In this document: one piece after another, positions 7,258 through 41,547 of the stretch
How the letters are laid out: each line of letters opens with the position of its first letter
Numbering within the stretch: the stretch's first letter is position 1
Source: an uncultured Gemmatimonadales bacterium
GTDB taxonomy: Bacteria; Gemmatimonadota; Gemmatimonadetes; Gemmatimonadales; GWC2-71-9
Length of the DNA stretch: 64,000 nt
Assembly: GCA_963779755.1 (NCBI GenBank)
Contig: CAVZZO010000003.1
Location: 1,504,001 to 1,568,000, forward strand
Direction: 5' to 3'
Notes under the pieces: model-generated
The model's database searches: none
The model's input: only the letters and a program-made list of their open reading frames with translations
Told to the model about the DNA's origin: nothing
Program-made: the position numbers and the translations under genes

Positions 7258-7258
7258 C

Positions 7259-11194: not shown

Positions 11195-11628
11195 TCAATC
11201 GACAATCTCGCTCCACCGCCGCCTCGCAATGATACCTCCAATTGGGCCAAATGCGACCGAGAGTATCAGAATCGTAATTTGGCTATCAGGTGAAAAAGCA
11301 TCGCGACCGCTTGCCGCGATGGCAAAGCCTGTCCATATGGGAACTGCACATAGGAGCCCCAGTAAAGCTGCCCCCCACCACCAGCGTGCCAATGGCCGAA
11401 GCGCACCGAGTACCATCCCCGCACTTATCCCCCCCCCCAATACGCAAGGATTGTACTCCCTAGGGTGCTGTGATGAGTTTCGAAAGCCTGCGTACCGTTG
11501 AGAGCATAAATGCCCAGCGCTATTACGGAGTACAGCACGGCACCACAAATCCCTAGCCCGCCCCCCCAGAGAACGTTCTGGGTCAGCGTCTTGCCCCTAT
11601 ACTTCCGATCCTTTACTAGTGACGACAC
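11195..11628 (-). CDS. Putative membrane immunity protein for RHS-B, split at a G10 tract (11429-11438)
   Basis: ORFs 11425-11628 and 11195-11548 join into one multi-TM protein if the run is G11 or G8; overlaps the RHS-B stop. Confidence 0.7.
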
Positions 11629-14600
11629 GCGGCTACCGCCTCCATCACGGCGTCATAGGTGGCCAACCCAGGAACTAGGCTCCTAAGAAACCCCCCTACG
11701 GAGAACCCTCCCGCCAAGGATGGGGCCGCTGCGTCAAAGCCAATTGCGGTTGCCCCCAACGCCCCCCTCGATCCCAAATATGCAGAGGCTAAGCTACGGC
11801 CCCCGCGAATCAGGTTCCCGCGAGCGTACACCAAGTCCATCTTTGTACCCCATTCTGTAAGGCTCCTAGCAACGTACCCAGCTGCCCTCGCTCCTCTGAA
11901 AATCCCGGACAACCCCCCAGTGAAAAAGAACGAGCCGTCAATAACGCCAGTTCCGATTGCTATTAGAACAGCATCCCTACAAGCCATCTTGTCGCCTGGC
12001 TTGGGCGGACTGCCCGCGCCCGCCCCGCTCGTCGACACGATCGGGTTCCCATTGGGGTCCTCCCGCGGCGTGAACCCACCACACGTTGTCCACTGCCATT
12101 CGGTCCAAGAGCCTTGATCGCTGTTGCACGCTTGCGGCTCGGAGAAAGCACTCGGAAGATCATGATGTGCATAGCCCTCGATCTCCGGGAGGCAGACAAC
12201 GCCCTCGTCGCACTTGGGATCCATACCAAATGGATCCGACCCACTGATAGGATCATTGCCAGAGTACGCGTAGAGATTGAGCCCTCCCATTATCCCAATC
12301 GGATCTTCGGTCAGGAACCTCCCCAGCTCCGGGTCATAGTACCTCGCCCGCATATAATAGAGCCCGCTCTCGGGATCGTACTCCCGCCCCGCCATGCGGA
12401 ACCGGGTAACCACGCCGGTGTCCGGACTGGCGATCCGGCCCCAGGCATTGAGATCGTACTTCTTGAGCGGCGCCCCCGCACTGTCCCGCGCGATCCCGTG
12501 CACCGACCCGATTACCGGGTCGGTGAGCACGACCCCGCTCCAGCTGGCGTTCTTGATACTGAAGAGTCGGTCGCTGCCTGGCAAGTGGCCGTATTGGTTG
12601 GTGACGGCGAAGCTGTTGTTGAGGTCGAGCGCCACCTGGTCGCCGTCGTAGACGTACCACTGGTTGCCGCTCGCGGTGGTCTTGCGCACCCGGCGGCCGA
12701 AGGGGTCGTAGGCGAAACTGTCCACAAAGGCCCCCGGGCCCGTGAGCACCTGCTTCAACCGGCCCAGGGCGTCCCAGGTGTACTGTTGGCCGATATAGCA
12801 GTAGACGTAACCCGAGCACTTCGACACCATGTTCCCGTTGGCGTCATAGGTAAAGTACCAGCCGGCCGAGTAGGCCAGCCGATTGCCCGCCCCCACGTTC
12901 GCGACCAGCTCGCCCGCCACGAGGCGGTTGCCCGCTGAATCATAGACATAGGCCGGACCCGTCCAGCCCCACTCGTTGGTGCAGGTGGGGCCGCTCAGGT
13001 CACAGGCATTGGTCAACCGGCCCAGGCTGTCGTAGGTGAAGGCCCGCTTGAGCTCCCCATTGTACTGCTGGGTCTTGAGCCGGTTCAGGGAGTCATAGGT
13101 GACGGTGACGCCCAGCAGGTTGTTCAGGGCGGAATTGCTGTAGGCCTGGAGCGAATCGGCGTGATTCTTCGTGAACGTACGCGTCTCGGTCCACTGGCCG
13201 GTGCTTGGGGTTCCGGGCCCAAACGTGAGGGTGGTCGCCAGCCGTTCTTGATTATACGTGGGGCTCAGATGCCCGCCCGGAGCCGTCAAGCTTGTGAGGG
13301 TTCCATTGCTGCCGCTGTAACCCGCACTGACGGGGTAGTTGTTCCCCGGGTCCGACCGGGCCGTGATCCGGTTCTGGCTATCCCACGTGTAATTCCACTG
13401 GTAGGTGTGGCCGCTCATGGTCTGGATCGAAGTCGTGAGCCGGCCTGCGGCGTCGTACGCCAGGGAGTCGTAGGCCACGGCATTCTTCCCGACCAGCCAG
13501 CGGCCCGCCGGATCATAGCGGAAGGTATCGGCCGGAAAATCCGGGCCGGAGCGCGTGAGCAGTCGGCCGGCCACATCATAGGTCAGGGTGATCGTATCCC
13601 CGCGGCGCGTCTTCACGGTCCGCACGTTCCCGGCCACGTCGTACCAGGTGCTGTCGGCCTTGGTGGTGTCGCCCAGATCGTGCTGGGCCGTCAGCCAGCC
13701 CAGGGGGTTGTAGCGGAACTTGTAGACCTCATGTTTGGGATCGGTCACCCGGACCAGGTTGCCCAGCGAGTCGTAGCCGAAGCTGGTGGTGTACCCCCTG
13801 CCGTCCATCGAGGTCAGGGTCTGGTTCAGGACCCCGTAGGTCACCTTGCTCGTGCCCGATTGGGGAACGTGCGTGGTGTCCGCTCGCCCCAGCGCATCGT
13901 AGTGGTAGGTGATCCGGTTCCCCCGGGCATCCACCTGGGTGGCGACGTTCCCCCAGGTTCCTTCATAGAGTGTGCTGTCCCGGTGGGCAGAGTCGGCGTG
14001 GATGAAGACCGTGACCCGGCCTCGGGTATCCTCCAGGTAGCGGCCCCCGAAGGCCCCGGCGATCTGCACGCTGTCGAGTGAACCCGCCGGCCCGCCGGTG
14101 CCGCTGTGGTAGGTGTAGCTGACACCGGCCGGGCCGCCCGTGATGGTGGCGACGTCGCCCAGCGCCGTATAGGTGTAGTTCAGCGTGCGGTTGGTGGTCA
14201 GATCCTTGGCCTGGAGCAGGAGGTAGGGCGAATAGGCCGGTGGTTCGTTCCCGTTCGAGTAGCTGAACTGGCTCGCGTGGCCATTCGGTTCGGTCACATA
14301 GGTGGGCCGGGACAGGGTGTCCCGGGTGATGGTCGTGATTTTCCCGAAGACGTCCTTGATCCAGATGGGCGCTCCCAGCCGGTCCAGCCGGAAGGTGATG
14401 ACCGCGCCTTGGGGGTCGGTCGCGGTCGCCAGCGCGGAGTCGGGCACCTGGGCCGTCTTGGCGGTGGCTTCGCTCGTTCCGGTGGTGCCTGGCTGCCATA
14501 CCACGCGGTCCGCCGCCTTCAGGACCACCGTTGGCCGCCCATTGCCGCCGGTGTAGAGCGGAACACTCGGCGCCTTGAGACTGTCCACCCGCCCGAGAGC

Positions 14601-16028
14601 GTCGTAGGTGATATTGGTCGCGTGTCCTGCCCGGTCGGTGACCTGGGTGAGCTGGTTCGTGGACGTGTTATAGGCCAGGACCGTCGAGATATTGTCGGGG
14701 TCTTTCACATTCACCAGCCGGCCGCTGGTGATGGTATAGGTCGTCACCCGGTTGCCGGGATCCTTGACCGTGGCCAGCTTGCCCGAGGCGTAGGTCAGCG
14801 TATCCCGCTTCCCCATGGGGTCAGTGATCTTGACCAGCAGCGTATCGTTGGGCGCGGTCCCCCAGGTGAGCGTGGTGGTATTGCCGAAGCGATCCACTGC
14901 CTTGGACATCCGGCCGTTCGAGAGAAACTCCACATAGGAGCCGTCCAACGCCACACGCCGCAAATGCCCTCCGACAGTCGCCAATGTGGTGGTCACGCCC
15001 GCCGGCGGCGCGCCGTTCTTGTACACCAGCACGGAGCCGTCCCCTTCCACCACTACGACACCATCCGATTGGGAGAAGACCTGTTGTAACCCGGCCATGC
15101 CCACGCCCGCGCCGAACGCACTCTTGCCGCGGTCGTTGACCAGGACATAGCTCGGCACGGTATTGCTGATCGTGCTGTCCGTTCCGTAGTGCGCCGTGGC
15201 CACCACCAGGACATCGTACCCCCCGGTCGTGAGGCCATTGGTGCTGTCATCCAGGACCGCCTCCACGCGCACCGGCGTGGTGCCCTGAGCCATGTAATAG
15301 ACCGCCTGCTGGCCATTCAGCAGGGTCAGGAAGGCACCGGTAGACACCCGCTTGACCTGCAGGCTGTAGCTCGTGGGTGTGTGCCCCGCGGTCGCATTCA
15401 GGTCCATGGCGATCACGGCCTTCGGGTGGACCGTGGCGCTGTTGTAGACCAGGGATACGGTGCGAGGCTGGCCGAGGGAGAAGTACGGGACGGTGCTATG
15501 GGTCCAGACCATGTCGAAACAACTGGCGAGGCACTGACCGACGCTGCGATTCCCGGGACTATACGGGGCGAGCGAGATTACCGGGGCTCCCGGCGGGGCG
15601 ACCACCGGCACGGAAACCCACCCAGTATCCGAAGCCTCGCCGTCGGCATGCAGCGTGATCCGCCCCGTGCCGGCGGCTCCGACGTGGAAGTACGCTTTGA
15701 CCTTGGTATTCTGCGCGCCCGCTGCCAGGGATAGCGAGCTGGGCTGCACGCTATCACAGGTCGCCGGGGCGGTGCTGGCGCAGGAAAGCCCGTACGTGTC
15801 GTCGTTGATCCCGTTATTCCACACCGTGAAGAACTGAATGAACTCGGTAGGAGCGTACGGGTTCTTGGTGGAGGTCGTCCCCCAATCCGGGGTGACGACC
15901 ACACTGAAGTCGTTGCAGCCCTCCACACAAAGCGGCTGGGCTTGCCCGGATAGCGGTCGGGAGAACGTCAGGCAGGCGACGAGGACAGGAAGGAAGGGGA
16001 GCAGGGCGAGGAAGCGGCGAGCGGACAC
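11616..16028 (-). CDS. RHS-B: signal-peptide RHS toxin with Gly/Ala-rich hydrophobic CT
   Basis: GTG start at 16028 after ccggag; signal peptide, QPLCVEGC domain, YD repeats, RYYDPELGRFLTEDPIG...DPFG. Confidence 0.92.
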   Translation of the reverse strand: MSARRFLALLPFLPVLVACLTFSRPLSGQAQPLCVEGCNDFSVVVTPDWGTTSTKNPYAPTEFIQFFTVWNNGINDDTYGLSCASTAPATCDSVQPSSLSLAAGAQNTKVKAYFHVGAAGTGRITLHADGEASDTGWVSVPVVAPPGAPVISLAPYSPGNRSVGQCLASCFDMVWTHSTVPYFSLGQPRTVSLVYNSATVHPKAVIAMDLNATAGHTPTSYSLQVKRVSTGAFLTLLNGQQAVYYMAQGTTPVRVEAVLDDSTNGLTTGGYDVLVVATAHYGTDSTISNTVPSYVLVNDRGKSAFGAGVGMAGLQQVFSQSDGVVVVEGDGSVLVYKNGAPPAGVTTTLATVGGHLRRVALDGSYVEFLSNGRMSKAVDRFGNTTTLTWGTAPNDTLLVKITDPMGKRDTLTYASGKLATVKDPGNRVTTYTITSGRLVNVKDPDNISTVLAYNTSTNQLTQVTDRAGHATNITYDALGRVDSLKAPSVPLYTGGNGRPTVVLKAADRVVWQPGTTGTSEATAKTAQVPDSALATATDPQGAVITFRLDRLGAPIWIKDVFGKITTITRDTLSRPTYVTEPNGHASQFSYSNGNEPPAYSPYLLLQAKDLTTNRTLNYTYTALGDVATITGGPAGVSYTYHSGTGGPAGSLDSVQIAGAFGGRYLEDTRGRVTVFIHADSAHRDSTLYEGTWGNVATQVDARGNRITYHYDALGRADTTHVPQSGTSKVTYGVLNQTLTSMDGRGYTTSFGYDSLGNLVRVTDPKHEVYKFRYNPLGWLTAQHDLGDTTKADSTWYDVAGNVRTVKTRRGDTITLTYDVAGRLLTRSGPDFPADTFRYDPAGRWLVGKNAVAYDSLAYDAAGRLTTSIQTMSGHTYQWNYTWDSQNRITARSDPGNNYPVSAGYSGSNGTLTSLTAPGGHLSPTYNQERLATTLTFGPGTPSTGQWTETRTFTKNHADSLQAYSNSALNNLLGVTVTYDSLNRLKTQQYNGELKRAFTYDSLGRLTNACDLSGPTCTNEWGWTGPAYVYDSAGNRLVAGELVANVGAGNRLAYSAGWYFTYDANGNMVSKCSGYVYCYIGQQYTWDALGRLKQVLTGPGAFVDSFAYDPFGRRVRKTTASGNQWYVYDGDQVALDLNNSFAVTNQYGHLPGSDRLFSIKNASWSGVVLTDPVIGSVHGIARDSAGAPLKKYDLNAWGRIASPDTGVVTRFRMAGREYDPESGLYYMRARYYDPELGRFLTEDPIGIMGGLNLYAYSGNDPISGSDPFGMDPKCDEGVVCLPEIEGYAHHDLPSAFSEPQACNSDQGSWTEWQWTTCGGFTPREDPNGNPIVSTSGAGAGSPPKPGDKMACRDAVLIAIGTGVIDGSFFFTGGLSGIFRGARAAGYVARSLTEWGTKMDLVYARGNLIRGGRSLASAYLGSRGALGATAIGFDAAAPSLAGGFSVGGFLRSLVPGLATYDAVMEAVAACRH

Positions 16029-16061
16029 GGCGGGCTCCGGAGAGAGGTCGCTCCCTGCCAT

Positions 16062-16078
16062 GGCAGATTACATGCCCT
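16062..16078 (-). promoter_or_regulatory. sigma54 -24/-12 promoter of RHS-B
   Basis: Minus strand aGGGCATGTAATCTGCc = GG-N10-GC, about 35 bp upstream of the GTG. Confidence 0.72.
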
Positions 16079-16145: not shown

Positions 16146-16202
16146 AAATGTTCAGAAATGTTCAGCTTTGTTCGGAACATTTCCGAACATTTCTGAACAT
16201 TT
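16146..16202. promoter_or_regulatory. Putative enhancer (UAS) array B
   Basis: TGTTC(A/G)G x3 then inverted GAACA x3 at 10-bp period; contains the EBP-B stop codon. Confidence 0.7.
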
Positions 16203-17169
16203 CGTTCGCGTGCTTCGCCTCCCGCAGCGATAGCCCATGCGTCCGCAGGCGGGAGTAGAGGGTCGTGCGGCTGATCCCGAGTACCGCCATGATACGCTTG
16301 GCGTTCCAGCCATGGGCTGCACAGATCGCTACCAGTTGCGCGTCTACTGTCCCCACGCGACCAGGAACCCGCGGGTCCAGATCACGACACCCCATCTCGA
16401 TGGCTTCCGCGAGCCCGGCGCCCGTGATTTGTCCCCCACCCCCCAGCCACCCTGCCCGCTCCACCACATACCGCAGCTCGCGCACGTTCCCCGGCCAGGC
16501 GTAGCCCGCCAGCACGGACGCGACACCCTCGCCCAGGCTCCAGCCCTGCCGTCTCGCGAAGTGCTCCGCCAGCGGCAGCAGATCCTCCGTCCGTTCCCGG
16601 AGCGGCGGCAGCCGCACCAAGGCCCCGCAGATCCGGTGATAGAGATCCGCCCGGAACCGGCCAGCTTCGATCTCGCGGGTCAGCGGCCCCTGCGCCGCCG
16701 CCACGATCCGCAGATCCACCCGTCGCTTCCCGGTCTCGCCCAACCGCCGCACTTCCCCCTGCTCCAGCACCCGCAACAGCTTGGCCTGCGCCTCCAGCGC
16801 CAGGCTGGGCAGCTCATCCAGCAACAGGGTCCCGCCGTCGGAGGCCGCGATCAGGCCCTCGGCATCGTCCGCCCCGGTATAGGCGCCACGCCGGTGCCCG
16901 AACAGCTCCCCTTCCACCAGCTCGCGCGGCAGCGCCGCACAATTGAGGTCTACCAGGGGCCCACGCCGCCCGCTCCAGGCATGCATCGCCTGGGCGAAGA
17001 GCTCCTTCCCCGTCCCCGTCTCCCCCACGAGGAGAACCGGCAGACTGGTCGTCGCGAAGCGGAAGGCCAGATCGAGCGCGCGCAGGAAGGCAGGCGCTCG
17101 GCCGATCATTGCCGGCGCCGCGCCCGGTGCCCCCGGGCCGCTGATTTCCGGCGTGCGGCTAGCGGTCAT
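16162..17169 (-). CDS. EBP-B: sigma54 enhancer-binding protein without a sensor domain
   Basis: GETGTGKE, GAYTGA, LLLDE, WPGNVREL, Fis-type HTH LGISRTTLYSRL. Confidence 0.93.
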   Translation of the reverse strand: MTASRTPEISGPGAPGAAPAMIGRAPAFLRALDLAFRFATTSLPVLLVGETGTGKELFAQAMHAWSGRRGPLVDLNCAALPRELVEGELFGHRRGAYTGADDAEGLIAASDGGTLLLDELPSLALEAQAKLLRVLEQGEVRRLGETGKRRVDLRIVAAAQGPLTREIEAGRFRADLYHRICGALVRLPPLRERTEDLLPLAEHFARRQGWSLGEGVASVLAGYAWPGNVRELRYVVERAGWLGGGGQITGAGLAEAIEMGCRDLDPRVPGRVGTVDAQLVAICAAHGWNAKRIMAVLGISRTTLYSRLRTHGLSLREAKHANEMFRNVRKCSEQS

Positions 17170-18433
17170 CGCCCGCTCCCATGTCTCCGAGCCGCGGTTG
17201 GGTGACCTGATCGGCGTCCTCGTCCGTCTTCAGGATCCTGGGCGTGATGAAGAGATATAGCTCGGTCTGGCTCTTGCTCCGGCTGGCACTCCCGAAGAGG
17301 CCGCCCAGGATCGGGAGGTCCGAGAGCAGGGGCACCCCCGACTGGCTCTTGTCCCGCTGCTCGTCGGTGAGGCCTCCGATCACGATGGTCTGGCCGTCCC
17401 GCACCAGCACCTGGGTGGCGGCCTCCCGGGTCGAAATGATGGGCGCATCGAACTGGGTCTCGCTGGTGGCGGCATTGATCTCCTGCTGGATGACGAGGGA
17501 GACGTAGCCGTCCTGGTTGATGGTGGGGCGCACGGTGAGCTTGGTCCCCACATCCTTGTACTGCACCACCTGGTCCCGGCTCGGGGTGTCGGTCGGCAGC
17601 GAGCGGCTCACCTGCACGAAGGGCCGCTGGCTCCCCACCAGGAATCGGGCCTCGGTGTTGTTGGAGGCGAGGAGGACCGGACGAGAGATGATGTGCACAT
17701 CGCCGTGACTCTGGGCCATCCGGAGCGTGGCATCAATGTCCGCCTTGCCCAGGCCCATGAGCCGGACCACCAAGTCGCCCAGCCCGCCACCTGCGGTATT
17801 CGCGTCGATGCTGCCGCCGTCCAGCTTTTGCTTCGGCAGGTGCAGGTCGGCCCCCAGCGAGAAGCTCCGGTCGTGCCGGGCCTCGACAATCAGGACTTCG
17901 ATCAGGACCTGGAGCGGCCGGATGTCGAGCTGGTTCACTGCCTCCTCCAGGACCTTGTAATCCTCTGCGGAGGCGCGGATCAGGAGCGAGTTGGTCAGCT
18001 CGTCGGGCACGATGGTGACGGAGCCCGAGAGGGCGGACAGGCGGACAGGCGGGAAGGCGGGAGGGCGGGAGGTGCTGCCCGTGCCGGAGTTCCCTGCGGA
18101 GGCACTACGTTCCGCTGCAGTTCGTCGGAGAGCGTTCCGCTCGAAAGTCCGGAGCTGCCGCTGAACTCGCCCGACCCGCCGAAGAGCTGATTCACGGTGG
18201 CGGCGACGTCGGCGGCGCGGGCGTGCTTGAGCCGGATGACAAAGAGGCGGATGTCCTGGGGTGCGCCCGGTGTCCCCGGCCCCGGCGTGGGCGGCGGCGG
18301 AGCGGGGGGCTTGGGTTCGATCCGGAAATAGGCGGAGTCCTCGGTGAGCTGCAGCCCGTTGGTTTCGACCAGGTCGCGCAGCAGCGGCAACACGGCCGCC
18401 CGGGTGACGGGAGCCGGCGGCTCCAGGGTCACC
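17159..18433 (-). pseudogene. gspD: Duplicated secretin gene, 5'-truncated and frameshifted
   Basis: Paralog of 25973-27236; lacks the signal peptide and start; five octamer repeats at 18031-18070 versus four in the intact copy shift the frame. Confidence 0.88.
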
Positions 18434-18487
18434 GTTCCGAACCGACCCTTGCACCAGGAAATCGCCCGTGGATCTAGCCTGTTGGCG

Positions 18488-19126: not shown

Positions 19127-19858
19127 CTACGGCTTGTCTGGCGGACGGCCGGCAGCCGGGATCGAGTCGACGACTTCGAGACTTGGTGGTGCACCAGCCT
19201 GTAGCCTACACTCATACCTGGCCATACGTCCCGGCTCCGCTACCCACTCCTGGACGATCCACTGCCCCTTGCCCATGTGGGTTACCTGAGGGGCTCCGAC
19301 CCGCGTGCCCCACGGAGGCCCACGGGAAGAGAAGCCCATCTTACGCCAATCGTCGGCATTCTCGAACACGATGGGGCGCATGGAGGACGTACTTGCGTGC
19401 CCAACCGTCGCCGCTAGCTCGGTGCACGCCCTCTTGGCGGCATCCGGGCCGTCCGGTACCCAACCTGCGGACACTGCGGTGAAGTCCTCCGGTGTCCGCA
19501 GGATCAGCAGCTGGGTGTCACGCTGGGCGAGGATCACCACGGACTCCATGTGCGCGCTGCCGACCGGCCTGTATACGCTCCGATAATAGACCAAGCCAGG
19601 AACGACCCGTGATGACTCGGCCGTAGTCTCGAGCATATCCGGGTCGAGGCTGCTCACTGCTTCATGACGCGCGGTTGCGATGGCCGTAAGAGCCACGGAA
19701 TCGGTAGCTGAAAGTCGGCTCGCCTGGCCCATTCTCCCTGGCTCACGACTGCAAGCGACTAAGAAAGCGATCGCCATTAGGCGGCTGGCGGCTCTGGCGC
19801 ACGCTCGCCGGCCAACGAGCAGAGGCCGCACGTCTCGCGTGGATGCCATAGCGATCAT
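19127..19858 (-). CDS. Lipoprotein, putative immunity protein for RHS-C
   Basis: ATGA overlap with the RHS-C stop; lipobox AFLVAC. Confidence 0.65.
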   Translation of the reverse strand: MIAMASTRDVRPLLVGRRACARAASRLMAIAFLVACSREPGRMGQASRLSATDSVALTAIATARHEAVSSLDPDMLETTAESSRVVPGLVYYRSVYRPVGSAHMESVVILAQRDTQLLILRTPEDFTAVSAGWVPDGPDAAKRACTELAATVGHASTSSMRPIVFENADDWRKMGFSSRGPPWGTRVGAPQVTHMGKGQWIVQEWVAEPGRMARYECRLQAGAPPSLEVVDSIPAAGRPPDKP

Positions 19859-24855: not shown

Positions 24856-24872
24856 AGCAGGCCGCGTGCCGT
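24856..24872 (-). promoter_or_regulatory. sigma54 -24/-12 promoter of RHS-C
   Basis: Minus strand acGGCACGCGGCCTGCt = GG-N10-GC. Confidence 0.78.
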
Positions 24873-24938: not shown

Positions 24939-24990
24939 GAGAATTTCTCAGAATTTCTCAGAACCTCTGAGAATTTCTCAGAATTTCTCA
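24939..24990. promoter_or_regulatory. Putative enhancer (UAS) array C
   Basis: GAATTTCTCA at 24941, 24951, 24971 and 24981, with palindrome TGAGAATTTCTCA; last box contains the EBP-C stop. Confidence 0.7.
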
Positions 24991-33067: not shown

Positions 33068-33582
33068 GGGGTCGTCGTGTCCCAACTCACGATGTCCGCA
33101 TCCTCGTTCTGTCCGCCCGGCTGGCCGTCCCGGCCGTAGCTGGCCAGGTCATAAGAGGTCGGGCTGTGCACCCCCGGGCTGGTGTAGAGGTAGGGCCGGT
33201 TCCAGGGATCCAGCGGCGCCCGCTTGCGGAGATAGGGGCCGCGCCAGTTCAGCGCCGGCGGCGAACCCTGCGGCAGCTGCCAGAGGGCATCCAAGCCCTG
33301 CGCCGTCGAGGGGTAGTAGTCGTTATCCAGCCGATAGGCATCCAGCGCCGTCCCCAGAATCTCCAACTGGGACTGCGCGGTGGATCGCTTGGCGTCGCCC
33401 ACGTTCCGGAAGACCATGGGCGAGACGATGCTCGCCAGAATCGCGATGACGGCGATGACGACGAGGATCTCGATGAGGGTGAAGCCGGCAGTGGGGCGGT
33501 ACGGCGGTACGGCGGTACGGCGGTAGCAAAGGAAGGCCGACCGCCTGAGGGTCCGACCGCCCGACCACCCGACCGCCCTCAT
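33064..33582 (-). CDS. gspG: Major pseudopilin
   Basis: AG|FTLIEILVV, ALDAYRLDN..YPSTAQGL.AL, NWRGPYL...DPWNRPYLY, SYGRDGQPGG; ATGA overlap with gspE. Confidence 0.95.
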   Translation of the reverse strand: MRAVGWSGGRTLRRSAFLCYRRTAVPPYRPTAGFTLIEILVVIAVIAILASIVSPMVFRNVGDAKRSTAQSQLEILGTALDAYRLDNDYYPSTAQGLDALWQLPQGSPPALNWRGPYLRKRAPLDPWNRPYLYTSPGVHSPTSYDLASYGRDGQPGGQNEDADIVSWDTTTP

Positions 33583-35084
33583 TGTCCCACCACGCGCATC
33601 ACTTCCTCCACGGTCGTCATCCCCGCCTGCACCTTGCTCCAGCCGTCCTGTTTGAGCGTCGTCATGCCCTCCGCGGCGGCGAGGCGCCGCAGGTCCGTCG
33701 GCGACGGATGGGTGATCAGCATCTGCTGCAGCTCCTCGCTCATGGTGAGCAGTTCGTAGATTCCGGTCCGGCCCCGGTACCCGGTCTGGCGGCAGCCGTC
33801 GCAGCCCCGCCCCCGTTCCAGCCGCCCTTCCTCTATATCCGGCACCACCACCGGCCCCTCCCGCAGCAGCGCCAGCGCCCCGGGATCGGGGCGGTAGCGC
33901 TCGCGGCACTCGGCACAGGTCTTCCGCACCAGCCGCTGGGCCAGCACCCCCTCCAGGCTGGCGGCGATCATATAGGGCTCGACCCCCAGATCGGTGAGCC
34001 GGGTCAGCGCACTGACGGCGTCATTGGTATGGAGGGTGGAGAAGACAAGGTGGCCGGTCATGGCGGCCTGCACCGCGATCGCCGCGGTCTCGGCATCGCG
34101 CATCTCGCCCACCATCAGGACATCCGGGTCCTGCCGCAGAATGCTCCGGAGCGCGGCGGCAAACGTCATCCCGCTCTGAACGTGCACCGGCACCTGCGTC
34201 ACCCCGGGCAGGTGGTATTCGACCGGATCCTCGACCGTGATGATCTTCTCCTCCCCGCTGCGACGGAGCGCCAGCGCGGCATAGAGCGTCGTAGTCTTGC
34301 CGCTCCCGGTGGGCCCCGTGGAGAGCACGATCCCGTGGGAGCGGCCGGCCAGCGCCCGGAACCGCTCCAGCAGGGCCGGCGGCATCCCCAGCTCGTCCAG
34401 CCCCACCAGCCGCCCGCCCCGGTCCAGCAGCCGCAGCACCACCGATTCGCCGTGCAGCGTGGGCACGGTGGAGACCCGGAGATCGAGCTCTCGCGCTTCC
34501 AGCCGCACCCGGATCCGGCCATCCTGCGGCAGGCGCCGCTGCGCGATGTCCAGCTCGGCCAGCAGCTTGATCCGGGAGACCACCGCCGCCTGGAGCGCCG
34601 GGGGCGGGCTCGGCAGCTCCGTCAGGACCCCGTCAATCCGGAGCCGGACGCGGAGCCCGTCTGCCGTGGCCTCCAGGTGGATATCGCTGGCGGCGGCGCT
34701 ATGGGCCTCCCGGATGAGCAGGTTGACGAACCGGATGACGGGGGGCTGGTTGGCCAGGTCGCGGGCATCGGCCAGCGGTTCGCCGGACGCGTCTCCCTCC
34801 GAGGAGCCGGCCGAGCCCAGATCCCGGACCAGTTCCACCATGGATTCCGCCTGGGCGGCGGTGCGCCGGATCGCATCCAGCAGCTCGTCTTCGGCCACGG
34901 GTTGGAGCCGCAGCGGCACGCCATAGTGATGCCGCAGATCCTCCAGCACTTCCGGGTTCTCCTCGCCCGCCACGGCGACCACCAGCTCGCCCTGCTCCAG
35001 CGCGAGCGGGAGCAGACGGAAGAAGGCGAGATACTCAGGACTGAGGCCGGCGGGGATGCCGAGGGTGCTGTGGAGCAGAGGCAT
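33579..35084 (-). CDS. gspE: T2SS ATPase
   Basis: ASDIHLE, RLPQDGR, GPTGSGKTTTLY, TVEDPVE, LRQDPDVLMVGEMRD, two CxxC, GYRGRTG. Confidence 0.95.
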   Translation of the reverse strand: MPLLHSTLGIPAGLSPEYLAFFRLLPLALEQGELVVAVAGEENPEVLEDLRHHYGVPLRLQPVAEDELLDAIRRTAAQAESMVELVRDLGSAGSSEGDASGEPLADARDLANQPPVIRFVNLLIREAHSAAASDIHLEATADGLRVRLRIDGVLTELPSPPPALQAAVVSRIKLLAELDIAQRRLPQDGRIRVRLEARELDLRVSTVPTLHGESVVLRLLDRGGRLVGLDELGMPPALLERFRALAGRSHGIVLSTGPTGSGKTTTLYAALALRRSGEEKIITVEDPVEYHLPGVTQVPVHVQSGMTFAAALRSILRQDPDVLMVGEMRDAETAAIAVQAAMTGHLVFSTLHTNDAVSALTRLTDLGVEPYMIAASLEGVLAQRLVRKTCAECRERYRPDPGALALLREGPVVVPDIEEGRLERGRGCDGCRQTGYRGRTGIYELLTMSEELQQMLITHPSPTDLRRLAAAEGMTTLKQDGWSKVQAGMTTVEEVMRVVGQ

Positions 35085-35116
35085 GGGGATCCAGGGATCA
35101 AGATGATCGTTCCTCA

Positions 35117-35133
35117 GGCACACTACATACCAG
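35117..35133 (-). promoter_or_regulatory. sigma54 -24/-12 promoter of the T2SS operon
   Basis: Minus strand cTGGTATGTAGTGTGCc = GG-N10-GC, about 33 bp upstream of the gspE ATG. Confidence 0.72.
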
Positions 35134-35201
35134 AGCACCTCCTATGGCTAATCCTGTTGCTGCTCATCCGGTTATCTGGGGAAACGCGGCGTCCGGACCG
35201 G

Positions 35202-35250
35202 TGTGTCACGGGCCCCCAGAACTGTGTCATTTCTGGGGTCCGGTGTATCA
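35202..35250 (-). promoter_or_regulatory. Putative enhancer array D1 (three TGAYACA boxes, 21-bp period)
   Basis: tgtgtca 35202, tgtgtca 35223, tgtatca 35244; the last includes the EBP-D stop. Confidence 0.72.
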
Positions 35251-36171
35251 GGCTGAGCGGAAGGTGCGGGAATCGGATCGCTTCCGCGCCCGGTAGAACG
35301 TGCTGCGACACATCCCCAGGGTAGCGGCGGCTTTGGTCTTGTTGCCGGCGGCCAGTTCGACCACCTGGTCCAGCAGGTCCTCGCTCAGGTCCGGTGCCGC
35401 CAGGCGGGCAAGATCGCCCACACTCTGTAGAAACCTCGGGGGCAGGTGGGCGGGCCCGGCGAGGCCGCCGGGCTTCCCATGCACCGCGATATACTCGCAG
35501 ACGCTTTTCAATTGCCGGATGTTGCCCGGCCAGGGAGCGCTCAGGAAGATGGCCCGTACCTCGGGTGACAGCCTCGGCGGGGATTCCGGCGCGGCAAACT
35601 CGCGAAGAAACCGGGCCGCCAGGAACAGGATGTCGGGGCGCCGCTCCCGCAGGGGCGGAACCTCCAGGATGGCATAGCCAAACCGATCCAGCAGATCGGC
35701 CCGGAATTCCCCCGCCGCGGCGAGCGCGAAGAGATCCGCATTGGTGGCGCAGATCACGCGCGTATCCACCTTGATCGGGCGGATGTCGTGCAATCGGAAC
35801 ACCACCCCGTCTTCGATGACATGGAGGAGCGTCTCCTGGACCTCGGCGGAGGCGGAGCCCAGTTCGTCCAGGAAGAACGAGCCGCCATGGGCCGACTCGA
35901 TGAGCCCCTTGCGATCCGTCACCGCGCCGGTAAAGGAGCCGCGGGTGTGGCCGCCGAGGATGGAGGCGCCGAGACTGCCCGGGATCGCCGCCGCCGAGGT
36001 GTAATGGAAGCCGTGGCGGCCGGAAACCTGGTGCAGCAGACGCGCGAGCACCCCCTTGCCCGTGCCGCGCTCGCCCAGCAGGAGGAGGGGACGGCGCGTC
36101 GGCCCCCAGGCGCGTACTTCCTTCATGACCGAGTCCGGAAACTCCAGACCGTGCGGGACGTGTGGATCCAT
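35248..36171 (-). CDS. EBP-D: sigma54 enhancer-binding protein without a sensor domain
   Basis: GERGTGKG, GSFTGA, FFLDE, WPGNIRQL, HTH GNKTKAAATLGMCRSTFYR; start placed at ATG 36171. Confidence 0.9.
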   Translation of the reverse strand: MDPHVPHGLEFPDSVMKEVRAWGPTRRPLLLLGERGTGKGVLARLLHQVSGRHGFHYTSAAAIPGSLGASILGGHTRGSFTGAVTDRKGLIESAHGGSFFLDELGSASAEVQETLLHVIEDGVVFRLHDIRPIKVDTRVICATNADLFALAAAGEFRADLLDRFGYAILEVPPLRERRPDILFLAARFLREFAAPESPPRLSPEVRAIFLSAPWPGNIRQLKSVCEYIAVHGKPGGLAGPAHLPPRFLQSVGDLARLAAPDLSEDLLDQVVELAAGNKTKAAATLGMCRSTFYRARKRSDSRTFRSA

Positions 36172-36287
36172 GGAATCGGACGCGGTGTCCGGGGGCTGAG
36201 GTATGGCAGATAGGCTACCCCGAAATCTGAACTCCGCTAGAGGGAACTTCACCACGCCGTAAAGCGGGAACGGATTGCCCGGGGGTG

Positions 36288-36336
36288 TGACACACTTTCC
36301 GCCCGCGGTGACACACTTTTCTCCCCGCCTGAGACA
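36288..36336 (+). promoter_or_regulatory. Putative enhancer array D2 (three TGASACA boxes, 21-bp period)
   Basis: tgacaca 36288, tgacaca 36309, tgagaca 36330. Confidence 0.72.
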
Positions 36337-36404: not shown

Positions 36405-36421
36405 CCGGCACGGTGCCTGCC
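36405..36421 (+). promoter_or_regulatory. sigma54 -24/-12 promoter of RHS-D
   Basis: ccGGCACGGTGCCTGCc = GG-N10-GC. Confidence 0.78.
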
Positions 36422-36455: not shown

Positions 36456-39400
36456 GTGCATGCGCGCCGTTTGGCCGTTCTGGTTCCTGCGCTATTCCTT
36501 GCTGCTCTAGTCTTAGGCTTCCCCGATGCTCAGCCCCTCCCTGCGCAGAGCCAGCCGCTCTGCGTCAGCGGCTGTAACAACTTCAACGTCTATGTCACTC
36601 CGGATGGATCCACATCGCCTTCTCGGCCGGCGAACAGCAATGGTTATAGTGCCTTATTCCAGGTACAGAACAATGGGGCTCTCCAGGACTCGTACGACAT
36701 CACCTGCCTGGGGAGTAGCGGGGTTACCTGTACCGGTGTGAGTTCCAGCAATCTCACCATCGCATCCGGGGCCAAGAAGTTTGTCACGGCCTACTACAAC
36801 GTGGGCTCGCAGGGGACCGGCAAACTCCGTCTTACCGCCGCAGGAGAGGCCTCGGATACTGGCTGGTACAATGTTCCCATCACCGCTCCACAAGGGTTCC
36901 CCGGAGTCGCCCTGATCAACTTCAACCGCGACAACCATGATCGCTCGCTGTGTTTGACGGCAGGCGCGGGAGAGGCGGCCGCGTATCAATGCGGGTATCT
37001 CACCGTATATCACTCGATGCCGGGCTACACGACGAAAGGACGGGAGCGCTCACTGAGCCTGGTCCACACCTCGGAACAGGCGTATCCCAGCCCGATCGTG
37101 GTTGCCGGCGTGACTGAACCGGTCACGATTGCCAAGCCCGACAACATTTTCTTCCAGCTGTCCGTCAGTGGAGTGGTGCGGGATACCGGGCACATGGGGA
37201 ACTGGGGCGGCGGCCCAACGGACGTGACCCGCCAGGTGATCATCACCTACAACGCGAGTAGCGACTCCACCGGGCTGTATCCCATCTCGCTTCTGATCCG
37301 GAATGAGTACGGTGCGGCGACATATGACGTTGTCCTCGCCGATACACTCATGGGGGTGAACCGGACAGGGAGCGAGTTCGGGGCCGGGTGGGGGCTGGAT
37401 GGGATCGAGCATCTCTACTTCAACCAGCCGGTGGGGACCGCGAAGGGGGACATCCTGCTGGTGGATGGCGACGGCTCCGGCCGCTGGTACCACAAGCTCA
37501 CGGCCACGACCTGGGCGGGGCCCAGGGGCACCTATCAGGACACCCTCACCTACAGCAGCACAACCCAGCGCTACACCCGGACCCTGCGGCACGGGATCCA
37601 GGTGGTCTTCGACGCCAGCGGCCGGCATGTGAAGACGGTGAACCGGGTCGGCGATTCCACCGTCTTCGTCTGGAGCGGCAGCCCGGTGCGCCTCACCAGC
37701 ATCAAGGTGCCCCCGGTGGGGCAGACCGGCACGGTGTACACCCTGGCCTGGGACGGCAATCACCAGCTGGACAAGATCACCGATCCGGCGGGGCGGGTGC
37801 TGGATGCAACGGTGACGAGCAACACGCTCGTGAGCTTGAAGGATCCCGATTCGTTGACCACAACCTTCAACTACAACACCAATCAACTCATTTCGGCCCG
37901 CACCGATACGCGAGGTAACAGCAGCTATTACACTTACACGCTGAATCTGTTGTCAACGGCCCGGCTTCCCCTTGACACTGTGGGAACGAGCTACGCCACG
38001 ACGACCTACACGCCGTGGAACTGGAAGTTCGTAGATCCTGACACAGCCTACACCAAGATCCTGGGCCCGCGGCCGAATCTGGCGGATGACGCGACCTTCT
38101 GGCTGGACAAGTGGGGGGCACCGGTCAAGATCAAGGATGCGCTGGGGGCCGTAACCACCATCGTGCGGGGGAACAGTGCGGTCCCGGCGCTGGCCACCAA
38201 GGTCGTTCGCTCCAACGGCCATGTGGACTCGATGACCTACGACAACCGGGGAAATCTCTCCGAGGCGCGCAGCCTTAGTAGCCAATCGGGGGCGCCTACC
38301 AGCTATACCAGCTACACCTACGGCGACCTCACCAACGCGCCCGATTCGCCCACCCGGGTGACCGATGCCCTGGGCCGGCATACCGATTACACCTATACCT
38401 CCCTCGGCCTGACCAAGTCGGTGACGTCTCCCAACGGCCATACGATGGGATTCGCCTACCAGCTCACCGGGCTCCAGAAGGGCGAACTCCTGAGCGTCAC
38501 CGATTCGCAGGTGACCGTCTGGCATGAGAGCGCGGCGAAGGACACCGTGCTGAATCTGACGCAGCGCTTCACGTATACCTCCCCGCTGGGGAACATCCAG
38601 ACCACCACGGCGCCGAGCGGCGTCGTGACCAGTTATGTCCTGGACGCCTACGGCGGGATCAAGGAGTTCTTCGACCCCTACGGGACGCATACGCGCTACG
38701 TGGCGGACGTGATGGGGCGGGTGACGATTGACAGCCAGTTCAACGGGTGGTGGGACCAGGGGCGGCACCCGACGACCTGGACGCCGCTGGCCGGGTGTGA
38801 TTCGACGTATTTCAACTGCAACCCGGCGCTCGTCAACTACGTCCCCAACTACAACTATCTGCTCACCCACTACCACTGGTCGGCGGCCGGGGTGGATACG
38901 GTCACCGATCCCGGCGGCGTCGTCCGGTCGTACGCCTATGGGCCCAGGGGCGAGGTGGTCTCCGAGAGTGACGAGTTCGGCCATCATCGCACGGCGGTCT
39001 ACGACGAGGCCGGGCTTCTGACGAGCAGTACCTCACGCTCCAACTTCCAGGTGCGCTTCCACTACGACCTTGCCGGCCGGCGTACCTCGATGGTGTACCC
39101 AACCCGTATCTGGGGTGTCGTGTACCCAGGTGACACCGCCCATGTGGCTGGCGACAGTCTGTATTACCAGTATGACAGCCTGGGACACCTGACGCTGGCC
39201 CATGACCGGTGGAACGAAATCCGCCGGACCTACTATGCCAATGGGGCGCTGAAGGCCAAGCGGACCACGAGCCCGGCGGATTCCCTGGTGTACACGTATG
39301 ATGCAAGCGGCGCGGTGAAAACGATGATCGCCGTCCAGGGAAGCGGCTGGAAGGATTCCGTCGAGTACACCTATGACGCCGCCGGCGCCCTGGATTCCAT

Positions 39401-41045
39401 GCGCGTGACCTTCAATGTGCAGGGCACGCCAGTCGCCCGGGTGTTTACGTTCGACTGGGACGAGCTGGGCCGCCGCAAGCTGGTGACCTATCCCAACGCG
39501 ATGAAAGTTCATTACAGCTATGACCCCGCCGGCGCGCTGCGGCAGGTCATCGATACGAATCCGGGTAATCCCTCGGGTACTACGGACCGCTTCGACTTCA
39601 CCTATCGCAATACTAATGTGGACCCCGCCGGTCGTGTTTACTACCACACGGGCGACTGCCGCACCATTCAATTCGGTGACGCCAACAACTCGGCCTGTCA
39701 AGACAACGGGACCCAGCGGCAGATCACCAGCGTCTATAGCCGCCTGAGTGCGCTGGTCACCCAACGGCACAACCTGTATGCGGATACCATGGCCTACGAC
39801 AAGTCGGGGAACATGGTCTTCCACCACCTCGGGGCCAGTACCGCTACCCGGATGTGGCTGCACATGGTGCTCAACAGCAACCGGCTGAACTACGACTCCA
39901 CCGCCGGCGACGGTGCGGTAACGATTCGGCAATTCTATGACGCTGACGGTGCAGAGACGCTGCGTCGGCCCAGTGACAGCACCCTGAATACGGTGAGCCT
40001 CTGGCGGTGGTATTACTACGATGGACTGGGCCGGATGAGCGGCTATCGCTACGCCACCTGGAATCAGAGCTGGGGCCTGGATTTACACTACGACCCCGAC
40101 CACTGCCGCTACGATGCCGATGGCCAGCAGATGCTGGGCTGCGACAATCTGGCCCCGGCGATGGCCTTCGAGGGCCCCAATCCCTCCTGGGGCTCGACCG
40201 GCTGGCGCTATTTCCACGCCCCTGGGGTGGATGAGCCCCTGGTGGCCCTCTTCAGGTCAGGGGCGCCGCCCTCCGTTCTGAGCGAGATCTACTTCGTGAC
40301 GGATGGCCAGGGACGGCAGATTGCCGCCGCGCATCCGAATGGGGGTCTCTCCGCCGATGACCTGACTTCCGACAAGGCGGGCTGGCAATACGCCGGGGCG
40401 GCGAAGAACGCGGACGGCTTCGGCGCCGACCGGTACCAGCCGGCCAACCTCCCCCAGGTATCGCTCTTCCGGAATCGCGCGTATGATTCCCGGACGGGGC
40501 GATGGACGCAGGAGGATCCCATCGGGGCGGCGGGGGGGATCAATCTGTATCAGTTCAACGGGAATAATCCGGTAGTCAATACTGATCCGTTTGGGCTAGA
40601 CCCATGTAATCCTCCGGGAAGTTGCAAGGCTGTTGGCGTAGCGGTTGGAGCGGCGGCGGGGGCTGCAGTTGGAGATCTTGTCGCTGGTGGTTGTGCGGCA
40701 ACAACTGGTGGGGCGTGCCTTCTTGGCGCACCTGCGATCGTCGGCGTATCCGCTGGCATTGGCTCAGCTGGGGGAGGTCTTGTAGGGACTGTTGTTGAAC
40801 ATAAAGATGCATTGGAGCAAGTTGGGAAAAATGTAGTAAATTCCCTGCGGACAACTTGGCAGAAGATCAAGACTGCGGTCGGGTTGGCAGTGGGTCTTCA
40901 TGGTGGGCACCAGCCGCCAAAGATGCCGCATGATGACCCACCTCCTCCTCCAGTCAAGCCGGCACCAGCCCCTCCGGGGGGCGGGAAGCCCGATATCCAA
41001 ATTGGTCCCGACGGAGTTCCCAGAATGAAGATTCCTTCGCCGTGA
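36456..41045 (+). CDS. RHS-D: signal-peptide RHS toxin with glycine-zipper and Pro-rich CT
   Basis: Signal peptide, QPLCVSGC domain, YD repeats, RAYDSRTGRWTQEDPIG...DPFGL, CT GVAVGAAAGAAVG...GIGSAGGGLVG. Confidence 0.92.
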   Translation: MHARRLAVLVPALFLAALVLGFPDAQPLPAQSQPLCVSGCNNFNVYVTPDGSTSPSRPANSNGYSALFQVQNNGALQDSYDITCLGSSGVTCTGVSSSNLTIASGAKKFVTAYYNVGSQGTGKLRLTAAGEASDTGWYNVPITAPQGFPGVALINFNRDNHDRSLCLTAGAGEAAAYQCGYLTVYHSMPGYTTKGRERSLSLVHTSEQAYPSPIVVAGVTEPVTIAKPDNIFFQLSVSGVVRDTGHMGNWGGGPTDVTRQVIITYNASSDSTGLYPISLLIRNEYGAATYDVVLADTLMGVNRTGSEFGAGWGLDGIEHLYFNQPVGTAKGDILLVDGDGSGRWYHKLTATTWAGPRGTYQDTLTYSSTTQRYTRTLRHGIQVVFDASGRHVKTVNRVGDSTVFVWSGSPVRLTSIKVPPVGQTGTVYTLAWDGNHQLDKITDPAGRVLDATVTSNTLVSLKDPDSLTTTFNYNTNQLISARTDTRGNSSYYTYTLNLLSTARLPLDTVGTSYATTTYTPWNWKFVDPDTAYTKILGPRPNLADDATFWLDKWGAPVKIKDALGAVTTIVRGNSAVPALATKVVRSNGHVDSMTYDNRGNLSEARSLSSQSGAPTSYTSYTYGDLTNAPDSPTRVTDALGRHTDYTYTSLGLTKSVTSPNGHTMGFAYQLTGLQKGELLSVTDSQVTVWHESAAKDTVLNLTQRFTYTSPLGNIQTTTAPSGVVTSYVLDAYGGIKEFFDPYGTHTRYVADVMGRVTIDSQFNGWWDQGRHPTTWTPLAGCDSTYFNCNPALVNYVPNYNYLLTHYHWSAAGVDTVTDPGGVVRSYAYGPRGEVVSESDEFGHHRTAVYDEAGLLTSSTSRSNFQVRFHYDLAGRRTSMVYPTRIWGVVYPGDTAHVAGDSLYYQYDSLGHLTLAHDRWNEIRRTYYANGALKAKRTTSPADSLVYTYDASGAVKTMIAVQGSGWKDSVEYTYDAAGALDSMRVTFNVQGTPVARVFTFDWDELGRRKLVTYPNAMKVHYSYDPAGALRQVIDTNPGNPSGTTDRFDFTYRNTNVDPAGRVYYHTGDCRTIQFGDANNSACQDNGTQRQITSVYSRLSALVTQRHNLYADTMAYDKSGNMVFHHLGASTATRMWLHMVLNSNRLNYDSTAGDGAVTIRQFYDADGAETLRRPSDSTLNTVSLWRWYYYDGLGRMSGYRYATWNQSWGLDLHYDPDHCRYDADGQQMLGCDNLAPAMAFEGPNPSWGSTGWRYFHAPGVDEPLVALFRSGAPPSVLSEIYFVTDGQGRQIAAAHPNGGLSADDLTSDKAGWQYAGAAKNADGFGADRYQPANLPQVSLFRNRAYDSRTGRWTQEDPIGAAGGINLYQFNGNNPVVNTDPFGLDPCNPPGSCKAVGVAVGAAAGAAVGDLVAGGCAATTGGACLLGAPAIVGVSAGIGSAGGGLVGTVVEHKDALEQVGKNVVNSLRTTWQKIKTAVGLAVGLHGGHQPPKMPHDDPPPPPVKPAPAPPGGGKPDIQIGPDGVPRMKIPSP

Positions 41046-41052
41046 AGGAGCC

Positions 41053-41547
41053 ATGAAGCACATTCTTGAGAGAGCATACTGGTGGTGGATGCTCAAGACA
41101 AGCGACGTGGAGGATGTCCACGGATTGCGACTGGTGTATATCAGTGCTGACGCCAACCGGGCGAAGCCGACTATTCTGCGAGCGGTATCCGAGGCACTGG
41201 ACCGAATTGCTTCCGCGAGAGGTGGATTCGGTGAGTTGGTCACTTCACATCTGCGGTTTGTCGCAGCCTTGAAGGCGCGACGGAGTTGGATCGTACCTAT
41301 GGCTCGGGGATATGTTTCCCCCTTCTATAGAATTGAGGTGGAGAATCCACACTACCTTGCCTGCCGCTTAGTCTGGGCCGCAACCTATGTTCGACTCTTT
41401 CATGATGCTCTCGCAAATGGCGGACAAGGAACCGGTTTGGCTGCTATTCGCGATAGAGCGCGCGAATCGCAGGTCAGATTCCTGGAGCAGTTCCCCGATT
41501 CCGAACGCTGGCTGGAGTATATCGCCCAACACCCTGGTGGAATCTAA
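41053..41547 (+). CDS. Putative immunity protein for RHS-D
   Basis: Starts 7 bp after the toxin stop with an AAGGAG RBS; its TAA coincides with the IS630 end, so it may be clipped. Confidence 0.65.
   Translation: MKHILERAYWWWMLKTSDVEDVHGLRLVYISADANRAKPTILRAVSEALDRIASARGGFGELVTSHLRFVAALKARRSWIVPMARGYVSPFYRIEVENPHYLACRLVWAATYVRLFHDALANGGQGTGLAAIRDRARESQVRFLEQFPDSERWLEYIAQHPGGI

Follow-up and report, generated by a model that had tools for sequence, protein, structure and literature searches.

We identified a complete type II secretion system (T2SS) operon set among genes for RHS polymorphic toxins in a 64-kb stretch of DNA from an uncultured Gemmatimonadales bacterium. This whole stretch (the window; G000:C3:1504001-1568000) belongs to a 4.23 Mb genome of 68.5% G+C that is assembled in four contigs with 97% completeness. 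The initial annotation had proposed that the T2SS exports the toxins. The link between the two is well supported: conserved synteny, a separate T2SS clade, sigma-54 promoter architecture in common, and the absence of a type VI secretion system (T6SS) all point to it, while export is what we infer from that link. On these sequence data we think it fairly probable that this lineage-specific T2SS with a short secretin is the outer-membrane exporter of Sec-exported RHS toxins of about 1500-1650 amino acids.

Family scans and reading of the open reading frames (ORFs) gave the minus-strand order EBP3–gspE–gspG–gspF–three small pseudopilins–gspK–gspL–gspM–gspC–gspD–EBP2–RHS2–lipoprotein-like ORF–gspD fragment–EBP1–RHS1–small membrane ORF, where the enhancer-binding proteins (EBPs) are sigma-54 activators. 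RHS3 and the ORF after it are divergent from EBP3. The genes of the machine are as follows.

33579..35084, minus strand: GspE ATPase, likely start ATG 35084 (T2SSE E 1e-131)
33064..33582, minus strand: GspG major pseudopilin, 154.7 bits, above the NCBIfam GspG equivalog cut-off of 88.85
31886..33085, minus strand: GspF platform protein (T2SSF E 2e-41)
31602..31889, minus strand: GspH-like short pseudopilin with an N_methyl motif
31253..31615, minus strand: GspI-like pseudopilin, recognised by position and hydrophobic N-terminus only, without a family match
30576..31130, minus strand: GspJ-like pseudopilin with an N_methyl motif
29722..30579, minus strand: GspK minor pseudopilin (T2SSK_1st 46 bits, cut-off 26.2)
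28739..29728, minus strand: GspL-like protein, recognised solely via its PilN-type C-terminal domain
28167..28781, minus strand: GspM (GspM_XpsM 47 bits, cut-off 60)
27598..28200, minus strand: GspC-like protein (Pfam T2SSC E 4e-5, 23.9 bits, cut-off 27)
25973..27421, minus strand: GspD short secretin (482 amino acids) in which a signal peptide precedes a single Secretin_N domain and a Secretin domain (Pfam Secretin E 8e-48)

The T2SS set in the cluster appears complete, from C through G, with H-K, L, and M, and a prepilin peptidase and rpoN are encoded elsewhere in the genome. For the secretin, the ATPase, and the platform protein the best NCBIfam model is that of the T2SS component itself, at 256 bits for GspD (cut-off 351), 577 bits for GspE (cut-off 630), and 268 bits for GspF (cut-off 424). 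GspC, GspL, and GspM keep their positions in relatives. Both the gene order gspE-G-F-H-I-J-K-L-M-C-D and the placement between RHS genes at 11616-16028, 19855-24822, and 36456-41045 agree with the initial annotation. It had also described the operon as translationally coupled, which is true of most junctions, where start and stop codons overlap; however, I/J and C/D are separated by gaps of 120-176 nucleotides (nt) that are filled by a palindromic repeat. This imperfect palindrome of ~80-90 nt, CATTGCGAGGG...CCCTCGCAATG, is present at 27440-27530, 31126-31215, 52693-52764, and 63241-63320, with two copies inside the gsp operon in intergenic gaps, and looks like a repetitive extragenic palindromic (REP) or miniature inverted-repeat transposable element (MITE) type of sequence. 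Tandem GGCGGTAC octamers, about four copies each, were observed at ~27545-27575, just 5′ of gspD, and at ~33490-33525, at the 5′ end of the gspG frame. If gspG starts at ATG 33582, the octamers imply an unusually long GspG leader of 33 residues.

Three RHS genes, each followed by a small ORF, lie on either side of this operon.

11616..16028, minus strand: RHS1, with a signal peptide, Ig/plug N-domain, RHS core, and glycine-rich C-terminal part
11195..11548, minus strand: immunity-like small membrane protein 3′ of RHS1, with hydrophobic segments in its translation and without a family match
19855..24822, minus strand: RHS2, with a signal peptide, Ig/plug N-domain, RHS core, and C-terminal HExxH (HEATH)
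19127..19852, minus strand: immunity-like ORF 3′ of RHS2, with a likely lipoprotein signal (AFLVAC)
36456..41045, plus strand: RHS3, with a signal peptide, Ig/plug N-domain, RHS core, and glycine-rich C-terminal part
41053..41547, plus strand: immunity-like gene 3′ of RHS3, without a family match

All three proteins match RHS_repeat and Rhs_assc_core (PF05593 E 5e-45, 5e-16, and 2e-26) as well as TIGR03696, and their cores end in a DPxGL-type motif (read as ...DPIGLAGG...DPFGL) that is followed by a variable C-terminal part. These C-terminal parts are unrelated to each other, being glycine-rich and hydrophobic in RHS1 and RHS3 and carrying HEATH in RHS2. RHS1 likely starts at GTG 16028, because the longer ORF to 16061 would include the promoter. 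Read by eye, the N-termini of RHS1-3 have a charged RR, a hydrophobic run, A-Q, and a conserved PLCV(S/E)GC. A Sec-type signal peptide, a different C-terminal part, and a downstream immunity-like gene had been ascribed to each RHS gene; inspection of the N-termini bears out the first, the C-terminal parts do differ, and the small ORF behind each gene is a candidate immunity gene. A search for immunity families among these small downstream ORFs gave no match. Signal peptides are kept on the RHS proteins of relatives. We also observed a twin arginine in the n-region of RHS1-3 (16028, 24822, 36456) and of two relatives (see loci L010, L011, and L002; e.g. MHRRWF); several other relatives have RHS signal peptides without it, and the hydrophobic cores resemble those of Sec substrates. 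That the RHS shell is exported already folded by the twin-arginine translocation (Tat) pathway, as an alternative to Sec, appears to have a low probability.

Residues 30-345 of RHS3, modelled from a 39-row alignment, gave an all-beta fold (pLDDT 88.7), for which Foldseek returned Ig-like sandwiches and the N-terminal part of teneurin (TMq 0.36-0.38). We read the model as Ig-like domains plus a plug that would close the shell, so the N-domain would be a structural part of the RHS protein rather than an obvious secretion tag. WapA of Bacillus and the teneurins are signal-peptide or extracellular YD/RHS proteins with N-terminal Ig-like and plug domains before the shell. However, WapA has only one membrane to cross, the teneurins are membrane proteins of eukaryotes, and neither needs an outer-membrane secretin.

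T6SS-delivered Rhs effectors are linked to PAAR or VgrG, have a shell round a polymorphic C-terminal toxin with a DPxGL-type core end, and are accompanied by immunity genes and orphan toxin-immunity arrays. RHS1-3 differ from them in having an N-terminal Sec-type signal peptide and in belonging to a genome without PAAR, VgrG, Hcp, or TssC. The lack of PAAR, VgrG, and Hcp had been noted for the window and extends to the whole genome, where models for TssC, PAAR, Hcp, and VgrG (PF05488, PF05943, PF05638, TIGR03361) found 0 matches at 97% completeness. Neither the PAAR or VgrG linkage nor the genomic T6SS that marks a T6SS-dependent Rhs effector is present here.

The operon and the toxins appear to share their mode of transcription, for which we identified three activator genes, four promoter-like sites, and sets of upstream repeats.

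16162..17169, minus strand: EBP1, sensor-less sigma-54 activator, AAA+ from residue 21, GAYTGA loop, HTH_8
16148..16200, minus strand: repeats ATGTTCNGAA, three tandem and one inverted, candidate EBP1 binding sites
16062..16077, minus strand: -24/-12-like site GGGCATGTAATCTGCC, 33 nt before GTG 16028 (RHS1)
24988..25992, minus strand: EBP2, sensor-less sigma-54 activator, GAYTGA loop, start overlapping the gspD stop
24941..24990, minus strand: repeats TGAGAAATTC, four exact tandem copies before RHS2, candidate EBP2 sites
24856..24871, minus strand: -24/-12-like site CGGCACGCGGCCTGCT, 33 nt before GTG 24822 (RHS2)
35248..36171, minus strand: EBP3, sensor-less sigma-54 activator, GSFTGA loop, HTH_8, divergent from RHS3
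35201..35229, minus strand: pair of direct TGACACA repeats at a 21-nt spacing, 5′ of gspE
35117..35132, minus strand: -24/-12-like site TGGTATGTAGTGTGCC, 32 nt before the gspE start
36287..36316, plus strand: pair of direct GTGACACAC repeats at a 21-nt spacing, 5′ of RHS3, with motif and spacing as before gspE
36406..36421, plus strand: -24/-12-like site CGGCACGGTGCCTGCC, 34 nt before GTG 36456 (RHS3)

In the three EBPs (PF00158 E 4e-54, 2e-53, and 1e-39, with HTH_8 matches) the sigma-54 interaction domain starts near residue 10-21 and the sensor domain is absent. EBP1 and EBP2 share 76% identity, most of their differences being at the C-terminal end that binds DNA. The start of EBP2 overlaps the gspD stop, so the gsp operon probably ends with EBP2. 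The promoter architecture proposed to be common to operon and toxins was recovered as a -24/-12-like site 32-34 nt before gspE and each RHS gene; all four sites fit GG-N10-GC, and each is preceded by repeats of its own. The number of TGAGAAATTC copies in the window was reached by 0 of 100 shuffles. Exact GTGACACAC is found in three copies only within the 64 kb, all before gspE and RHS3, with the same TGACACA spacing of 21 nt in both places.

We scored promoter sites only at positions before start codons, on a scale with a maximum of 11 and a threshold of >=8. Among relatives the threshold was reached by 9 of 12 T2SS-linked RHS genes, 33-57 nt upstream, and by 12 of 18 gspE genes, compared with 423 of 3000 random 300-nt stretches as background and 2 of 13 RHS genes in T2SS-free contexts. 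Over the whole window the pattern TGGCAC-N5-TTGCW, with 2 mismatches, was not enriched (19 found, 25 expected), so the promoter evidence is the position of the sites and not their number. A sigma-54 activator inside a secretion cluster that switches on both machine and effector genes is known from VasH (T6SS) and from HrpR/HrpS of the type III secretion system, and HrpR/S and PspF lack a sensor domain, as do the EBPs of the island. Unlike VasH and HrpRS, the island applies this activator logic to a T2SS and has an activator and a repeat motif of its own for each toxin cassette. In G141, a 3-contig genome without a T2SS, an EBP 49% identical to EBP1 lies directly 5′ of an RHS gene (L080:1293-7208), so an activator-RHS cassette can exist without the machine.

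We found that the pairing of this T2SS with RHS genes is kept in relatives. GspD matches at E <= 1e-20 were present in 26 of 41 genomes (40 relatives and the window genome; the set includes the unpublished G014), and a comparable GspD, full-length or 3′ part, was present at 16 places in 12 genomes, all 16 mapped by tblastn. Seven of these loci, from different genera, combine the E-G-F...C-D order with flanks that can be evaluated (G019_C171, G005_C43, G018_C50, G040_C63, G033_C2a, G025_C2a, G025_C2b), and all seven adjoin RHS genes with a homologous N-domain, as would be expected from the initial annotation; in five of them the gene right behind gspD encodes an EBP. Five loci have another gene order (D-E-F-G or G-F...D-E) and no RHS gene nearby (0/5, one of them on a 10.4-kb contig). 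The remaining places are two contigs too short to judge and two gspD′-EBP remnants with RHS pieces. No other conserved candidate cargo gene was found in the T2SS cluster.

The same association is seen in the phylogeny of the ATPase. A quick IQ-TREE of 27 GspE rows, for which two further ATPases of this family in the window genome served as root, had one clade (SH-aLRT 98) containing all 15 RHS-adjacent systems together with three located on short contigs and two that have no RHS in their flanks; the five other-order systems fall outside it. The RHS-linked copies, for which such a tree had been suggested as a check, are hence grouped apart from the phylum's other T2SS type. Because the tree rows were found through GspD, RHS, or GspC, adjacency frequencies are to be taken from the GspD-first sample only.

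Additionally, we examined an even sample of 401 phylum genomes, in which the RHS N-domain profile matches 82 (including the unpublished G199) and the GspC profile 62. With a strong GspC match defined as E <= 1e-15, the RHS N-domain is present in 31 of the 37 genomes that have one and in 51 of the 364 that do not, a co-occurrence that is descriptive only because related genomes are not independent. The six exceptions with GspC but without RHS comprise one diverged RHS after an EBP, three contigs that end at the EBP or gspD, and two with none. The GspC profile is an imperfect marker of the clade, since it missed a full system in G346 and gives weak matches to the other T2SS type. When species-representative genomes were scanned for the RHS N-domain, from a 6-row alignment, 48 loci were obtained, mostly in Gemmatimonadota (Longimicrobium included), 8 of them with this T2SS beside the RHS gene. 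Weak relatives of the N-domain were also observed in L067 (Thermoanaerobaculia), with an EBP 5 kb upstream, and in L071 (Omnitrophota), with a secretin-like match 8 kb upstream, which hints that similar pairings may occur outside the phylum.

The island may also have exchanged its toxin cassettes. It contains a second, damaged copy of the end of gspD.

17162..18438, minus strand: gspD′ pseudogene, a duplicate of the 3′ portion of gspD

This copy is part of a 2-kb duplication (16438-18433 matches 25252-27236 at 88.8% identity); it is without the first ~60 codons, has a frame change near codons 173-196, and was carried along with EBP1. We considered the 431-residue ORF at 17159-18454 as a second functional short secretin and rejected it, as secretin sequence (92% identical to GspD) makes up the last 308 residues alone and the non-secretin part is out of frame. 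gspD′-EBP stubs with RHS pieces are present in two relatives as well (G018_C40 and G022_C101). The truncated gspD′-EBP duplicate suggests that EBP-RHS-immunity cassettes enter by recombination in the gspD 3′ end and displace older ones downstream.

T2SS-linked RHS proteins have precedents. Bcn-A of Xanthomonas perforans is a 1398-residue RHS-family bacteriocin that is active in cell-free supernatant and loses activity in an xpsD mutant (PMC7259588), a result that we count as a precedent for RHS export by a T2SS. As with RHS1-3, Bcn-A is a Gram-negative RHS toxin of ~1400 residues with a downstream immunity gene, and its authors model teneurin-like plug and shell domains (PMC7259588). It differs in belonging to another phylum and in using the general Xps T2SS, which is not encoded beside the toxin, and the available part of that report describes no sigma-54 activators for Bcn-A (PMC7259588), such as are present at the island. 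The Xanthomonas XRhs F VIII and Ralstonia RRhs F II families are genomically linked to gspG and not to T6SS genes and are predicted T2SS cargo, for which the authors state that there is no functional confirmation; in the accessible text gspG is the one linked gene named (10.1101/2025.05.08.652813). At the island, in comparison, all 11 genes of a T2SS, secretin and ATPase included, are linked to the toxins, along with two or three activators. Zhang et al. (2012) list signal-peptide RHS toxins under 'T2SS/Sec-dependent', in the part available to us without signature neighbourhood genes (PMC3482391). In Omnitrophota, T2SS-like loci upstream of giant genes are read by the authors as dedicated to that cargo (10.1101/2023.11.21.568195). 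According to the sections available, these loci are like the island in that a conserved T2SS-like set adjoins the gene of a very large protein, secreted or at the surface; they differ in phylum, in a giant adhesin- or hydrolase-like cargo without RHS toxin-immunity pairs, and in a mixed type II/type IV set. Full-text searches found no description of a Gemmatimonadota T2SS-RHS island, nor of a sigma-54-controlled one. On these searches the initial claim that such a layout is undescribed stands for the complete, dedicated, sigma-54-wired island but is too broad for T2SS-linked RHS toxins in general: T2SS-dependent RHS toxins are known, and what we did not find in print is a complete, phylogenetically separate, cargo-adjacent T2SS with a sigma-54 activator for each cassette.

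These observations can be combined into a model of how the island may work. RHS toxins would enter the periplasm via their signal peptides and fold there into a shell closed by the Ig/plug N-domain, and the pseudopilus would then push them through GspD to the cell surface or medium. The C-terminal toxins would hit competitors while the downstream immunity genes shield the producer. EBP3 may bind the paired TGACACA sites and fire the -24/-12 promoters of the gsp operon and RHS3, and EBP2 may fire the RHS2 promoter via the TGAGAAATTC repeats; since EBP2 is encoded last in the gsp operon, RHS2 would be made only after transcription of the machine. EBP1, a diverged duplicate, would act likewise on RHS1. 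The wider reading, in which the locus is a mobile, self-regulating T2SS-RHS killing island with a cargo-specialised short-secretin T2SS, a sigma-54 feed-forward cascade, and cassette swapping at the gspD 3′ end that leaves gspD′ stubs, is one that we put forward tentatively, as a little short of probable.

Several observations weigh against export of the RHS toxins by this T2SS. Most of the T2SS components score under the curated NCBIfam cut-offs, with GspG alone passing, and the export step is deduced from sequence. The sites before gspE and RHS1 (score 7 each) are individually weak, and all promoter sites are consensus matches rather than mapped transcription starts. Of the 23 RHS loci for which the upstream flank spans the full 10 kb, only 5 show this T2SS, and two T2SS loci of the clade (G284 and G149) have no RHS gene in flanks of 13-18 kb. 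Furthermore, 34 genomes have a strong RHS N-domain match and lack a strong GspC match. A GspD search covered 30 of them (the other four being G199, which is unpublished, and three that lie at the GspC threshold), and 19 of these 30 had no GspD match at E <= 1e-40; among the other 11, G346 holds the whole island that the GspC profile had missed. In five well-assembled T2SS-free RHS genomes, a search for TssC found none, and each has a single GspF-family match scoring like the pilus-type platform protein of the window genome. Their RHS genes lie amid housekeeping genes, one of them behind an EBP, and RHS proteins of T2SS-free genomes still carry signal peptides. RHS proteins of the same family in genomes without T2SS and T6SS indicate that the T2SS is not a general requirement of the family. 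The dependence seems to run mainly one way: where this T2SS clade occurs, RHS adjoins.

The RHS-positive genomes without a comparable secretin, and the five without T2SS and T6SS, favour an alternative in which linkage does not reflect export. The T2SS and the RHS cassettes would then co-travel on a recombination-prone mobile island and share regulators, the RHS proteins leaving via lysis, vesicles, or pilus machinery, as would be necessary in any genome that lacks a T2SS, and the T2SS secreting other proteins. The insertion sequence (IS) and integrase genes at the island flanks fit this, as does the G+C of the RHS genes (0.57-0.64), which is under that of the gsp operon (0.70-0.74). However, the adjacency of RHS genes in every usable locus across different genera is less easily explained by co-travel, as is the finding that the RHS-linked systems form one T2SS clade whereas the other T2SS type is never near RHS. 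The paired motif common to the gspE and RHS3 promoters and the absence of an alternative conserved candidate cargo gene in the cluster also speak for export. We consider this alternative unlikely.

A second alternative is that the T2SS places the RHS proteins on the surface of the producer, with killing being contact-dependent and not diffusible. T2SSs put lipoprotein substrates such as pullulanase on the cell surface. The RHS1 signal peptide is also compatible with a lipobox (LVAC), and the N-domain resembles Ig-like sandwiches of a kind common in surface proteins. The lipobox cysteine is absent from RHS2, RHS3, and most RHS proteins of relatives, however, and Bcn-A, the tested precedent, is active in cell-free supernatant (PMC7259588). 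We consider such contact-dependent surface display improbable.

Very improbable is that the operon encodes a pilus or competence-type machine whose proximity to RHS genes is unrelated to protein export: although GspE, F, D, K, and M are under the NCBIfam T2SS cut-offs and GspE and GspF also match PilB and PilC models, T2SS models score best for each component, GspG exceeds its equivalog cut-off, the operon encodes GspK along with GspM-type and GspC-type proteins, the cluster has neither a PilT-type retraction ATPase (no PilT-like ORF was found in 25973-35138) nor a pilin-like major subunit, and a separate PilB-PilT-PilC locus exists elsewhere in the genome. The platform protein of that pilus locus (C1:1136562-1137749) scores 400 bits on the GspF model, compared with 267 for the island GspF, so the island T2SS is highly divergent.

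If the wider reading of the locus is correct, the island would hold the first T2SS dedicated to polymorphic toxins as its cargo, and RHS delivery in two-membrane bacteria would have a means that does not depend on a T6SS. For the exit of RHS toxins without PAAR or VgrG from such cells, Bcn-A with its general T2SS is the one tested case. A conserved island would give the 'T2SS/Sec' class of polymorphic toxins a neighbourhood signature, would let T2SS-delivered toxins be predicted in genomes, and would provide knock-out targets in gspD, gspE, the three activators, and rpoN. It also hints at a secretin accommodating a folded shell of ~160 kDa, and at a simple transcriptional rule of machine first and toxin second. 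Gemmatimonadota are common in soil and little studied, their means of competition included.

The island extends beyond the genes described above. In a whole-genome search, all RHS-like sequence was confined to C3:1488800-1548500, around the gsp operon, and includes the following additional features.

2883..7055, minus strand: RHS0, with an RHS core and a Colicin-E5-like C-terminal domain
9654..10751, minus strand: orphan module, an RHS core end with a C-terminal toxin
44159..44470, plus strand: RHS core fragment, 92.6% identical to RHS2 20267-20578

RHS0 lies outside 11195-41547 and yet is a member of the same RHS array. Its ORF has no signal peptide and lacks most of the N-domain, and neither was recognised in 7056-9653. 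The orphan module is closely related to RHS1 (10321-10684 and 12301-12664 are 92.9% identical). Further RHS core-end matches lie left of the window (C3:1488800-1504000), so the array of orphan toxin modules reaches at least 15 kb past it. The RHS core fragment is beside a Mutator-type transposase (42852-44057), and the right border of the island, at 42852-50224, consists of mobile genes: this transposase, two rve integrases, DUF5906, and a PD-(D/E)XK protein. Beyond this border, 58575-63259 encodes a TPR-repeat Ser/Thr protein kinase and, after it, a regulator of the BTAD/AAA_16 type; neither appears to be related to the island. At the other end of the window, positions 1-2600 contain short direct repeats, with 107-505 matching 443-849 and 1081-1266 matching 2283-2468.

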